A DNA stretch of 64,000 bases from Eledone cirrhosa (lineage: Eukaryota). Position 1 is the stretch's first letter, and each line of letters opens with the position of its first letter. The DNA lies in contig OZ024746.1 of assembly GCA_964016885.1 (NCBI GenBank), positions 66,526,001 through 66,590,000 on the forward strand, written 5' to 3'. Below are positions 56,853 through 63,061 of the stretch, piece by piece. The notes beneath the pieces are model-generated. The model did not search any database. It was not told where the DNA came from and was given only the letters and a program-made list of their open reading frames with translations. Made by a program: the position numbers and the translations under genes.

Positions 56853-57065
56853 TAACGGAAGAAATGTGGTTAGGAACCAGGTGGACCATAACACACCAAA
56901 GTACTCAATACTTAGGGTAGTAGAGTGGGTAATAGGAACGAGTACGAGTAGGACCCCGACGGCTGAGCTCAGGCCGTTTCGACGGCTAATTCTGGACTCA
57001 ATTCTAGTCCAGAATTAGCCGTCGGAACGGCTTGAGCTCTGCCGTCGGGGTCCTACTCGTTCCTA
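56853..57065 (-). mobile_element. Fold-back element family E, copy 2
   Basis: About 145-bp long arm, 7-nt loop, about 60-bp short inverted arm, (TA)n on both sides. Confidence 0.9.
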
Positions 57066-57257
57066 TATATATATATATATATATATATATATATATATAT
57101 ATATATATATATATACATATATATTTATATATATATATATACAATGAATAAATAAATAACCAGTCTTTAATTACATTATTTAATAGGTTTCCTTTCGTTT
57201 TTTTTAAAATATAGGAGATAGCATTTTATTCCACTGTACTGAACTCCTTAGGATCAT

Positions 57258-57428
57258 TCGGTAGAGGGTGGGACGCCATGCTTTCCAGCATAGTTACGTC
57301 CCTTTACATCCTGAGTTCAAATCCCGCCGAGGTTGACTTTGCTTTTCCTTCCTTACGGGGTCGATAAAATAAAGTACCAGTAATGAACTGGGTATTTGCT
57401 GGCCTTGTGCCTAATGTAGAAACAATTA
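57258..57428 (+). mobile_element. tRNA-derived SINE (same family as 19098-19490)
   Basis: B-box GAGTTCAAATCC, core GGGGTCGATAAAATAAAGTACCAG, tail GTAGAAACAATT. Confidence 0.87.
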
Positions 57429-57570
57429 AATGATACAAAAAAAAATTGTTCACCAACCGCATGCCCCAATATCTCCAAATTCGAAAACGTAAACATCTTT
57501 ACATAATGTTATAGGTTTAGAGCTTTGAAAAATACTTTTTCCCTATATTATCAACCCATCTAATCTTCCT

Positions 57571-57750
57571 TATATATATATATATATATATATATATATA
57601 TATATATATATATATATATATATATATATATATATATATATATATATATATATATATATATATATATATATATATATATATATATATATATATATATATA
57701 TATATATATATATATATATATATATATATATATATATATATATATATATA
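57571..57750. repeat. Pure (TA)n, about 180 bp
   Basis: Read directly from the sequence. Confidence 0.97.
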
Positions 57751-58112
57751 AAATGTGGTAAGGAACCAGGTGGACCATAACGCACCAAAGTACTCAATAC
57801 TTGAGGTAGTAGAGTGGGTAATAGGAACCAGTAAGACCCCGACAGCTGAGCTCAAGCCGTTTCGACGGCTAATTCTGGACTAAAAAAAAATTTATGAATA
57901 ATCATCAATTCAGAGTTTTAGTCCATACATCCTGAATCTCAAATGCTAGAATTGCACCTAAATACGGATTATCCTGAAGGGAAATGCATTTTCAGAAGGC
58001 TCGCGACAACACAATAAACAGATTAGAGACTATAAATTTTTTTTTTTTTTTAGTCCAGAATTAGCCGTCGAAACGGCTTGAGCTCAGCTGTCGGGGTCTT
58101 ACTGGTTCCTAT
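57751..58112 (-). mobile_element. Fold-back element family E, copy 3, with about 145 bp of captured DNA in the loop
   Basis: Arms 57751-57881 and 58052-58112; loop = A-run + reverse complement of 58977-59120 + T-run. Confidence 0.9.
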
Positions 58113-59159
58113 ATATATATATATAAAACCATACTCTACTTCCCCAACTATCGACAACTCTTTTCAGTAATAGTCTAACAAATTTAAAACTAAATTCATC
58201 CTGATTTATACACACACACATGCACATATACTCCCCCCCCCATATATATATACTCAAAAGAGTACTCGATACTTGGGGATATATATATATATATATATAT
58301 ATATATATATATATATATATATATATATATATATATACACACATACATATATATATATATATGTATATATATATACATATATATATATATATATATATAT
58401 ATATATATATATATATATATATATATATATATATATATATATATATATATATATATATATATCATTATTATTATTTTATTATTATTATTATTGTTGTTGT
58501 TAAATCAAACTTCAACGCAGCTGGAGTTTCACATTTTATTTCTTGTTTTCTCAAGTACTTTCTTGTTTCTTCTGTAATATTATTTGGTGCAATTGGCAGT
58601 TTGCCTTCGTTACAAATAATACATCAGTGGCTTACATGTATTTGAAGTGATACATTCTATTAAACATAATTCTATTTTACATAATTTATGTTTGGTAATG
58701 TTACTTTTACGTTGTAAGTTTATCAAGGAGAGATAACCTATAAAAGGGTATTGGTTAATAAAACTTAGATAATGGATCACCTTAACACAACTTGAATTAA
58801 ATTAAAGTAAATCGAACTAAATCAAATTGAATTAGTGTCAATGTATATTAAGATTTGATTTCAACTTTCGAATAAAACTATTTTCTTTTGAATTAACAAA
58901 CGACATGAAGTTTATAAAATGTACATATTGTTTTAAGTTTGTTTCCAAATATCCATTTAATACCATCACTCATGCATTATAGTCTCTAATCTGTTTATTG
59001 TGTTGTCGCGAGCCTTCTGAAAATGCATTTCCCTTCAGGATAATCCGTATTTAGGTGCAATTCTAGCATTTGAGATTCAGGATGTATGGACTAAAACTCT
59101 GAATTGATGATTATTCATAATATTAGCCTTCTGTGACCACTTCCATTAAATCAATGACA

Positions 59160-59425
59160 TCATATTCTTGCAAGATGGACTCCCTCCTAATTTTGCAAGC
59201 GCTATCCATGACGGACTTGACATCCAAATTGCAGGACGTTGTCCGGGTTGTGGAGATCCCCGTGAATGGCCAACAAGACACCCTGGCGTAACGTCCCGAG
59301 CTTATTTCATGTGGGGGTATATGAAGGAAGAACCTTATAACTCGATACCAAAATATCTGACTAATTTCGAGGAACGCATTCGTCTTATTTTGACACCGCA
59401 TACAATCTGCGTTCATACCTAAGCC
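59160..59425 (+). pseudogene. Tc1/mariner-superfamily transposase fossil
   Basis: QDGLPPNF..GRCPGCGDPREWPTRHPGVTSRAYFMWGYMKEEPY matches the QDGAPPH..GRWIGR..WPPRSPDLTPxDFFLWGYLK pattern. Confidence 0.7.
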
Positions 59426-59794
59426 AGTTGAGTATATACCGAAACAATTGCAAATACGGAGGAGGGAAAAATATTGGTACTTATGTAGAAGTTTAACAAT
59501 GTAGGTAATTCAACCATTATACTATTCAACATAAAATATGCTTTAGAGAAAATCTAATAATAATAATTAAAATTATTAACAATTTTAAATAGACTTTTTC
59601 TTTTCACCTGCACACTATATATATATATATATATATATATATATATATATCTATCTATATATATATATATATATATATATATATATATGTGTGTGTGTGT
59701 GTGTGTGGTGTGTGTGTGTGTGTGTGTGCATGTATGTATATATATAACCATATATATATATATGAAGTTTAATCGTAGATCCCGAAGAATAACA

Positions 59795-59870
59795 TTCATG
59801 AGGTTGGCGTGTCTTGCTTGGGGATCTAGCCGGGTAAGAAGAAGAAGAAGAAGAAGAAGAAGAAGAAGAA
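59795..59870 (+). mobile_element. Possible tiny RTE-like remnant with (AAG)n
   Basis: tcttgcttggggatctagccgg resembles 51210-51237 and 44660-44677; followed by (AAG)n. Confidence 0.35.
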
Positions 59871-60507: not shown

Positions 60508-60943
60508 TATACACACACACACACACAGACGTACACACACACACACACATACACACACACACATACATATATATATATATATATATATATATATACATAT
60601 ATATATATATGCATATATATATATGCATATATATGCATATATATATATATATATACATATATATATATATATATATGAATATATATATATATATACATAT
60701 ATATATATATATACATATATATATATACATACATATATATATATATATGTATATATATATATGTATATATATATGTATATATATATATATATATATATAT
60801 ATATATATATATATATATATATATATATATATATATATATATATATATATATATATATATATATATATATATGTATATATATATATATGTATATATATAT
60901 ATATATATATATATATATATATATATATATATATATATATATA
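60508..60943. repeat. (CA)n-(TA)n compound microsatellite
   Basis: Read directly from the sequence. Confidence 0.95.
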
Positions 60944-61619
60944 GGTTGCGTTTGAATTTTGTGTTAAGTTATAAATGCATATTTTCATACATAGTATATG
61001 GGTATTGCTTTAATCTTTAATAGGTATTTGCGTTGTTATAGTCTTTAATATTATAAGTGTTATAGTGTCATTTTCGTATTAATTGCTTATCTTAAGTTGA
61101 GTTATTCCCACGTTAACTTAATGTGTAAAATACATACATAACACACTCTAAGTTTCTCAAATGTTACTGTTCATATATATACATATATTTAGGGTATTAA
61201 TAAATCTTAAAAGGCGGAAGGGTTATCAGACACACTTCTGGATGATGGTAGCACAGCCGCGTGCTAGACGTCAGTTGAAAGTTTGAGACCCTCGTTTCAT
61301 GTTAGATTTCATAGCCAAAAGATTGTGGTTGATGGTGTCCCCATTATGTTAATTTAATATTCATATTCATATATATATATATATATATATATATATATAT
61401 ATATATATATATATATATAGGTAGTATATAAATATGCATCCAAACAAACATACATGGAGACACACATACACACTTTATCTGTATATATATATAAATATAT
61501 GTATGTGTGTGTATGTATGTATTATAAAACCAGAGTTAGAAAGTTTAAGCAAAGACTCGCTGCTTTTACCCTAAACGGGATCTTCTCATAATAAATATTT
61601 GCTCTACGGGTTTATATAT

Positions 61620-61819
61620 NNNNNNNNNNNNNNNNNNNNNNNNNNNNNNNNNNNNNNNNNNNNNNNNNNNNNNNNNNNNNNNNNNNNNNNNNNNNNNNNN
61701 NNNNNNNNNNNNNNNNNNNNNNNNNNNNNNNNNNNNNNNNNNNNNNNNNNNNNNNNNNNNNNNNNNNNNNNNNNNNNNNNNNNNNNNNNNNNNNNNNNNN
61801 NNNNNNNNNNNNNNNNNNN
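61620..61819. other. Assembly gap (200 N)
   Basis: Run of N. Confidence 0.99.
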
Positions 61820-61838
61820 CACAACTAGCTAACAGATG

Positions 61839-62017
61839 TTTATATATATATATATATATATATATATATATATATATATATATATATATATATATATATA
61901 TATATATATATATATATATATATATATATATATATATATATATATATATATATATATATATATATATATATATATATATATATATATATATATATATATA
62001 TATATATATATATATAT
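61839..62017. repeat. Pure (TA)n
   Basis: Read directly from the sequence. Confidence 0.97.
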
Positions 62018-62409
62018 CACAAGTTGTTCAATATATTATTGATCGCGTGGCACAGTTATGACACAGGAAAGTTGAATATCTGTTCTTTACTATGTTATTT
62101 TCACAGTGAACTATATATTATATAGAATACCATGAGTTCACACACTTTAAATTAAAATGTAAGATACACTATTAAAATGTTTATACATAAAATTACATTA
62201 AAATTCATTGCAATGAAGCATATTGAAAAATTATTGATATAAACGATGATCAAAAAGGTTTTATCGTGGAAGAATTGTATTTCCCAAATTCAACACATTA
62301 TCAAAACAAAAACAAGACCACTTCTTTGATATATTGGTTGAATAATATTTATGAAACTTTATCGTATATGAACTGGTATAATCAAATCAAACATTACATA
62401 TATATATGT

Positions 62410-62755
62410 TTACCCCTCTTTTAATTTCAGTTTATTTTGATCATGCCTTTATTTTTAAATGTTCTCATTCCTTGTATTTTTAAATGTTCTCATTCCTTGT
62501 ATTTTGATCATGCTTTATTTTTATTTATTATTTATTATATTTTTGTCTTTATTTGTAAATTTTTCATTCGCACCGTTTCCTTTCGCTATATGTCTCTCCA
62601 CCACTCCCCTACACACCTTTTGAACTCTTACCTGAAGAAGGGCTTATGCCCGAAACGTCGTCCTCCACCTACCCCCCACTCTCCTGAGCGTGAATCTAAT
62701 AAACATTTATCGTACTGCCTCTCTGTTCTGTCCCTGTTCAATTTTTTATTATTAC
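62410..62755 (+). mobile_element. Penelope-like terminal fragment with minimal hammerhead (62632-62659)
   Basis: CTGAAGA-A-GGGC-TTAT-GCCC-GAAAC-GTC, then CCTGAGCGTGAATCTAATA; homologous to 26421-26705; TA flanks. Confidence 0.62.
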
Positions 62756-62856
62756 ATATATATATATATATATATATATATATATATATATATATATATA
62801 TATACAATATATATTGCTCTCTCCCTCTCTCTCTCTCTCTCTATATATATATATAT

Positions 62857-63061
62857 ATAGGAACAAGTAAGACCCCGACGGCTGAGCTCAAGCCGTTTTG
62901 ACGGCTAATTCTGGACTAACTAGTCCAGAATTAGCCGTCGAAACGGCTTGAGCTCAGCCGTCGGGGTTTTACTTGTTCCTATTACCCACTCTACTACCCT
63001 AAGTATAGAGTACTTTGGTGCGTTATGGTCCACCTGGTTCCTTACCACATTTCCTTCGTTA
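62857..63061 (+). mobile_element. Fold-back element family E, copy 4 (opposite orientation)
   Basis: Short arm 62857-62917, 4-nt loop aact, long arm 62922-63061, (TA)n on both sides. Confidence 0.9.

Follow-up and report, generated by a model that had tools for sequence, protein, structure and literature searches.

The window analysed here, a 64,000-nt stretch of the Eledone cirrhosa genome (G000:C6:66526001-66590000, G000 being the 3.0-Gb genome that we searched), carries four copies of a hairpin, family E, whose two arms agree with each other in diagnostic bases that differ between copies. How does a hairpin come to match itself at each locus into which it inserts? We found that these hairpins are almost certainly insertions of a Penelope-like retrotransposon (PLE); as judged by its motifs, the element appears to belong to the Hydra clade, and the hairpins to be its 5'-truncated, head-to-head insertions in (TA)n. 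An initial annotation, which had read the antisense strand, missed that what repeats here is the 3' end of an autonomous PLE. Taken as a whole, the data are probably best explained by insertions that are primed twice, with the complementary DNA (cDNA) running off at the capped 5' end of the element RNA.

The element unit measures 3.53-3.56 kb, and its open reading frame (ORF) ends 1.3 kb upstream of the 3' end, leaving a 1.3-kb 3' untranslated region (UTR). Among the first 30 genome copies examined, 4 extended inward beyond the turn of the hairpin; long arms run into single ORFs of 770-820 codons, with YRDD present in the frames of 786-807 codons (46,339 candidates for the ORF end were found genome-wide, of which 150 were scored). 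Twenty long copies hold a 5' pseudo-long terminal repeat (pseudo-LTR), the ORF and the 3' end, with an inverted copy at the 5' side. The protein P0001 carries RWR at 104, DKT at 184 and CxCx5C at 639, as well as YRDD, CxxC and CxH; at residues 654-672 a VIY...YIG pair, GIY- and YIG-like, encloses a single Cys, and a C-terminal endonuclease of the GIY-YIG type is predicted. RW[KR] and DKT recurred in 115/120 and 113/120 database relatives, respectively. The structure model of P0001 (predicted local distance difference test, pLDDT, of 93) found its best fold match in telomerase TERT (3du5; E 1.6e-8), and part of the members among the protein's Atlas neighbours carry GIY-YIG and RVT_1. A Pfam scan of the element protein gave no match, a PDB sequence search with it gave none below E 1.7, and an Rfam scan returned, among the 150 of 186 matches listed, just microsatellite-driven ones below the gathering scores.

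Section 11 of PMC8557442 (Craig et al. 2021) defines the Hydra clade by RWK, a change of DKG to DKT, CxCx5C, the absence of CCHH, and CxxC plus CxH around the catalytic E and N. Family E resembles this clade, which includes Hydra-1_Obim, in its single ORF, with a reverse transcriptase followed by the C-terminal GIY-YIG-type nuclease, in RW[KR], DKT, the CxCx5C linker, the missing CCHH and CxxC plus CxH, as well as in its (TA)n target, a hammerhead in the pseudo-LTR, the inverted 5'-truncated copy and the one-sided tail. It differs from the members described in the sections consulted in three respects. Its unit exceeds the length of generally <3 kb given there, a tendency rather than a diagnostic trait, because its 3' UTR is long; its tail has 77-79 nt instead of 30-40; and its ribozyme has a U3/A8 core, a 45-nt stem II insert and a 6-bp stem III, as opposed to the CTGA-core motifs in File S2 of that paper, those of Hydra-1_Obim included (the octopus Hydra family listed in the supplement has a different ribozyme). 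Partial tandems (pseudo-LTRs), an inverted 5'-truncated copy and a one-sided tail, all seen here, are hallmarks of endonuclease-positive (EN+) PLEs, and the latter two features have already been described for PLEs in the parts of PMC8557442 and PMC3846280 that deal with them. Two other identities were considered and rejected. A miniature inverted-repeat transposable element or other non-autonomous DNA transposon was ruled out by the variable arms, unique junctions, one-sided tail and continuity with the reverse transcriptase ORF; Neptune, Nematis and Naiad PLEs were ruled out by the lack of a CCHH finger with two Cys inside GIY-YIG, of a CX2-5CxxC linker and of the N-terminal endonuclease of Naiad.

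Having an element, we could define where its arms end. Positions are counted from the tail end (0), negative numbers lying upstream (5'); the landmarks are site A at -79/-77 (ambiguous within TA), the predicted ribozyme cut at -97/-96 and a hot-spot A at -137. Arms with their 3' end at about -78 are called tailless, or A, and those with their 3' end at 0 tailed, or B. In a tally of 359 arm ends, in which tailed ends are enriched by the choice of queries, 119 fell at -77 and 181 at 0, and of 124 inverted pairs 114 joined an A to a B end, the remainder being B+B (6, in 4 of which a leader continues into the ORF), A+A (2) or unclear (2). The tailless-end pattern had 19,027 exact matches genome-wide and the reversed control none; from the first 100 of these listed in genome order we drew an unbiased set of 90 tailless ends. 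A tailed partner was in view at 81 of these loci, a few of which are probably separate insertions, and not at the other 9, and no locus had a second tailless end within 400 nt. The initial annotation had described a fixed long-arm/short-arm design; what is fixed are only the two outer (3') ends, since arm length varies between <60 nt and 3.5 kb, and the longer arm may be the tailless one. The literature that we searched, to which subscription papers mostly did not belong, held no report of one tailed end paired with one tailless end per insertion.

A possible origin of the two ends is suggested by PAc, a Poseidon PLE of Anolis (PMC11167929, Frangieh et al. 2024), in which two internal start sites of reverse transcription downstream of the ribozyme define the tail, and both strands of an AT-rich target are cut and extended. 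By this analogy, sites A and B likely originate from two such internal start sites. PAc belongs to a different clade, however, and in vitro its start sites showed no strand preference in the results consulted, in contrast to the A+B pairing seen here; nor do the parts of that study that were seen treat an inverted arm, a strong stop or jumps.

The four hairpins of the window, located at 30289, 56855, 57751 and 62859, follow this two-end architecture. All of them sit in (TA)n, and in each the short arm stops at TTCCTA before the TA repeats, as had been reported. At 30 kb, a tailed arm of an older subfamily (30289..30399, minus strand), in which the PLE 3' end is truncated inside ribozyme stem III, faces a tailless arm, likewise of the older subfamily (30402..30445, plus), with an internal deletion in the same stem. 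At 56.9 kb, the tailed arm (56855..56998, minus; subfamily S2) begins at the hot-spot A (+1) with an extra G before it and contains a 7-nt internal duplication; it is separated by a 7-nt insert (56999..57005) from a tailless arm reaching from +1 to site A (57006..57065, plus). The 62.9-kb copy, of subfamily S3, consists of a tailless arm (62859..62917, minus), a 4-nt insert (62918..62921) and a tailed arm (62922..63059, plus) with +1 at 62922, site A at ~62981 and a 77-79-nt tail ending at 63059. The 3' half of a type I hammerhead occupies 62922..62981 of this arm (plus), comprising the 3' strand of stem II, GAAA at 62940-43, stem III and the 3' strand of stem I, with the predicted cut after 62962; this stub lacks the 5' half, which is located upstream of +1.

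In the 57.8-kb copy, a tailed arm of subfamily S1 that lacks ~7 nt of the tail end (57751..57881, minus) and a tailless arm with 61 nt identical to its partner (58052..58111, plus) flank a junction (57882..58051) composed of an A run, a 144-nt inverted copy of local DNA (57892-58035) and a T run. The donor of this loop is single-copy DNA ~0.9 kb from the insertion (58977..59120, minus); the loop is an exact inverted copy of it, and genome-wide the sequence occurs at only these two places, both at 100%. The loop is a locally templated insertion, of a kind that is attributed to polymerase-theta end joining; a phage search with it gave no match. A short fragment resembling the family E tail lies between TA runs at 58245-58280. 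Another inverted insertion of family E, of greater length and with the tailless arm longer, was seen ~13 kb past the window end (G000:C6:66603308).

The three young copies turn, as previously noted, at TCTGGACT / AGTCCAGA with different loops (56991/57006, 57874/58052 and 62910/62922). When turn points and short-arm ends were tabulated across loci, the 3' ends lay at fixed sites and the 5' ends clustered in one zone; that zone spans ~13-16 nt rather than a single base. Of 229 tailed arms, 101 begin at -141 to -129, with peaks at -141, -137 and -136, none begins at -146 to -142, and 60 are longer than -150; 64/90 tailless arms end at -141 to -126. The peaks fall on the A of TCATT and on the A of TCAGT/TTAGT, motifs which we take to match the initiator consensus. 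An older subfamily has a different stem II, yet 28/30 of its arms go no further upstream than -5 relative to the corresponding TTAGTT, the two exceptions being the sequences that served as templates. Where the partner arm does not explain the base before +1, this base is G in 13/18 raw cases, and in 9/14 against 24/129 elsewhere (P = 0.0006) once two L313 deletion artefacts, L256 and one of the near-duplicates L154/L155 are dropped. An extra G is the trace expected when a cap is copied, and a literature search for extra G from cap copying returned nothing; the pile-up of both arms at a single initiator-like position within the ribozyme, often with an extra G, was likewise not found in the literature searched. 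On these patterns the stop would represent the 5' end of the element RNA, which we regard as reasonably likely. In D. virilis Penelope, transcription is described as starting inside the upstream pseudo-LTR, from an internal promoter (PMC2377424, in the portion consulted).

The hot spot lies within a predicted hammerhead. For the 3' end of family E the fold obtained is a type I hammerhead whose core is U3/A8 (C3/A8 in some alleles). Across 9 arms that represent 6 subfamily types, 98.5% of cells are paired, and the constrained fold equals the free minimum or lies within 3.4 kcal/mol of it in 14/15 arms; a U3-A8 core is among the PLE hammerhead variants described in PMC4209133, as far as seen. 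The fold supports a hammerhead ribozyme in the pseudo-LTR, with cleavage predicted.

These observations can be joined into one mechanism, double priming at each insertion being a very probable part of it and the best-fitting of the options offered initially. The nuclease would cut (TA)n on both strands, and the two cut DNA ends would prime reverse transcription at sites A and B of the element RNA. Judging by the pile-up, transcription would start at -137 (+1), with a minor start at -141, inside hammerhead stem II, so that the 5' leader carries only half a ribozyme. Both cDNAs likely run off the capped 5' end (a strong-stop); two stopped cDNAs joined by host microhomology-type end joining would yield the minimal hairpin of 60+137 nt, and a strong-stop cDNA jumping to another place on RNA would produce long arms and pseudo-LTRs.

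Several observations weigh against parts of this scheme. A TATA-like box is absent in the older subfamily. In young and old subfamilies alike, the stop lies on an apical hairpin 18 nt before the ribozyme GAAA, so that a structural or protein block would fit too. The extra-G test was chosen after the data had been seen and some of the Gs may derive from the partner arm; its first version was weaker (10/20 vs 17/74, P = 0.026), and in front of arms that begin at +2 the most frequent base is C (12/26). Covariation in the ribozyme is weak (1 double change, with 50/500 shuffles as high), and 0/404 copies break on the 3' side of the predicted cut, leaving an RNA 3' end made by the ribozyme without genomic support. 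The experiments consulted in PMC11167929 saw no strand difference in start-site use and do not predict strict A+B pairing. Finally, 0/25 copies with at least 1.5 kb of ORF begin at the hot spot, all of them carrying further upstream sequence; long products therefore need either highly efficient jumping or an end-less template, such as a circle or a tandem precursor.

The last point bears on the strongest rival, in which the same element is also inserted by double priming but from a circular or tandem RNA made by the ribozyme, as in the circle model proposed in PMC4209133 (seen in part), with both cDNAs halted on stem II by a structural or protein obstacle, there being no 5' end at -137 in this template. 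In addition to the long copies and the fixed 18-nt spacing to GAAA, it would account for seamless head-to-tail arrays (L315-L321, up to four or five 3.53-kb units) and for a tandem (L312, G000:C2:356.03 Mb) of seven 299-nt units with the whole ribozyme, which is retrozyme-like; two jumps landing at the predicted cut (L306 and L329) and a weak end cluster at -99 to -95 (12/229, 3 of them alignment artefacts) point the same way. We nevertheless consider it unlikely, given the sharp upstream edge of the stop, with no ends at -146 to -142 and few stops at stem bases, the extra G before +1, the initiator-like motif kept in unlike sequence contexts, and the 299-nt tandem itself, which begins at -138. 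A mixed model is compatible with all the data: stubs may come from linear capped RNA, and long products from an end-less template. Tandem mini-elements consisting of the leader and 100-135 nt of ORF were observed at L312, L313 and L314, and in L318 the truncated 5' end holds a 55-nt piece repeated ~20 times.

The transfer step of the run-off reading was examined in insertions whose leader runs on into the ORF (182 matches; the 50 loci examined represent 38 insertions). Thirteen of these 38 carry a short ORF piece, the other 25 holding at least 1.5 kb of ORF. In 6/13, the sequence right after the ORF piece begins at -134 to -140, although the ORF position to which it is joined differs in all six; random deletions would not share such an end; the other seven comprise one restart at -126, two at the predicted cut (L306 and L329, above), two mini-elements with the whole ribozyme and two unclear cases. 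In L275 one private tail variant is present in both leader copies, as if one RNA leader had been copied twice. Re-joining of a hot-spot end to internal ORF positions was not found in the literature searched.

A second alternative keeps a single primed cDNA: the tailed cDNA folds back, copies itself as far as site A and is resolved by the endonuclease, akin to the self-priming argued for rotifer PLEs in PMC3846280 (as far as consulted). Strict A+B pairing would follow naturally, and so would the alleles shared by the arms and the 52/81 pairs whose arms end within 10 nt of each other. In 21/81 pairs, however, the tailless arm reaches >10 nt further 5' (the tailed one in 8/81), and thus holds sequence absent from its supposed template, >1.3 kb of it in L080, an outcome that a tailed cDNA folding back on itself could produce only if sequence were deleted afterwards; rescue would require such one-sided deletions to be frequent. 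Tailless arms also carry extra Gs of their own, and inter-subfamily pairs exist. Snap-back, which the initial annotation had offered as one option, is therefore very improbable.

Why, then, do the arms match? The diagnostic bases do agree between the arms of a copy, as first described, although they turned out to be genome-wide subfamily alleles rather than copy-specific variants. Among the 90 tailless arms, 34 are of the 57.8-kb type (S1), 31 of the 56.9-kb type (S2) and 12 of the 62.9-kb type (S3), and the 30-kb type has 1,053 genome matches. In 65/68 pairs that could be assigned, both arms belonged to the same subfamily, where chance would give 30%; 11 partners could not be used because of their shortness and 2 arms because they were ambiguous. 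Subfamily and source-lineage alleles explain the agreement within a copy. The match would follow from both arms having been copied from RNA of one source element, whose alleles they inherit before drifting apart. The arms of a copy are not always identical, differing at 3/53 aligned bases at 56.9 kb (apart from the 7-nt duplication in the long arm) and at 2/61 at 62.9 kb, with no mismatch at 57.8 kb, and in the unbiased set 51 differences affected one arm and 4 both, in 3,184 sites. Ten long S1 pairs showed 31 one-arm and 28 both-arm variants; 24/28 of the latter were present at other loci, and two further ones, at L080, were met again on both arms of a separate insertion, which has different flanks and in which the other arm is the long one, this double variant being otherwise unique in the sample examined. 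Strict pairing and source-lineage sharing favour one RNA serving both primers, while a few pairs that mix subfamilies at two sites (L034, L066 and L186) show that two RNAs are used at times. The 52 resolved short junctions (25 with microhomology, 9 blunt and 18 with an insertion) were all distinct and arm lengths were independent, in line with the earlier proposals that the hairpin is rebuilt at every insertion and does not derive from a master palindrome.

Conversion within the palindrome after insertion, or copying of a master palindrome as a whole, could account for the 4 both-arm differences, for the 2/28 long-pair both-arm variants found at no other locus and for the few loci in which both arms carry a T allele, yet with 51 one-arm differences, 52/52 distinct junctions, a 57.8-kb loop taken from local DNA, and a minor T allele carried by 65 tailless and 56 tailed arms and by both together at 2 places, it is largely refuted as the main cause and scarcely credible as such. 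Conversion is at most rare. The minor T allele (~0.3% of tailless ends; with a T partner in 2/17 visible pairs) is mostly a one-arm mutation, and an apparent clustering of the T/C alleles by arm side was rejected as an artefact of query selection, the allele being symmetric between the sides.

Other repeats of the window were seen alongside family E. Hairpins of a second family, unrelated to family E but likewise with a long and a short arm and placed in (TA)n, occur at 40753-41199, 43532-43799 and 20047-20167 and have a CTGAAGA...GAAA core. In 1.53 Mb of loci this family shows two 3' end sites, with 35 ends at -80 and 41 at -8 to 0, and it is probably another PLE with the same two-end rule. 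A third hammerhead-type repeat end (62406-62747) adjoins the 62.9-kb copy and ends in TA at one site in 9/10 copies. Our own hammerhead descriptor had no match over the window, and the ribozymes of these other families are candidates. The window further contains an uninterrupted 783-codon reverse transcriptase frame of non-LTR type (6858-9209, plus) with a C-terminal restriction-like motif recognized by eye, two long interspersed element (LINE) copies in inverted orientation and ~89% alike, with APE and reverse transcriptase frames (430-6000, minus, and 44979-48213), and further long inverted repeats for which a PLE origin is not implied (14421-15376, 19527-19949, 32420-32844, 35816-35908, 53315-53544 and 54251-54943).

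In retroviruses and LTR retrotransposons, minus-strand strong-stop synthesis is primed near the RNA 5' end, runs off at the cap and is followed by transfer. Tentatively, PLEs may use a target-primed version of this scheme, with a promoter inside the hammerhead, a capped half-ribozyme leader that the two cut DNA ends copy twice from two fixed sites, transfers from the cap that build pseudo-LTRs and tandems, and failed transfers that are left as minimal hairpins. The comparison concerns the manner of working only: in family E the target DNA would do the priming, and do it twice, and neither a tRNA primer nor an integrase nor a known RNase H would take part. In L1 twin priming both target strands likewise prime cDNAs that are joined by microhomology, yet there the result is an inversion without duplication and the second site is random, whereas in family E both starts are fixed and the same stretch of RNA is copied twice. 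A strong-stop and transfer model for PLEs was not found in the literature searched, although older PLE papers may hold related models. If it is true, the position of the RNA 5' end can be read from the genome in thousands of minimal hairpins.

Element and architecture both belong to a known kind, and what is useful is the mechanistic lead, since the formation of inverted repeats, tails and pseudo-LTRs in PLEs and the role of their ribozyme are stated to be open in section 15 of PMC8557442 and in the consulted parts of PMC11167929. Each stub, if transcribed, would be a near-perfect RNA hairpin, and a link to adenosine-to-inosine editing is a lead only, given the heavy editing of Penelope in a lizard and the abundant double-stranded RNA in octopus noted in PMC5625713 (seen in part). 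Family E supplies natural reaction products by the thousand, in which the two start sites, the stop zone and the mis-jumps serve as fixed landmarks, together with near-intact ORFs, which makes the self-priming, circle and double-priming/strong-stop models of PLE insertion directly testable.

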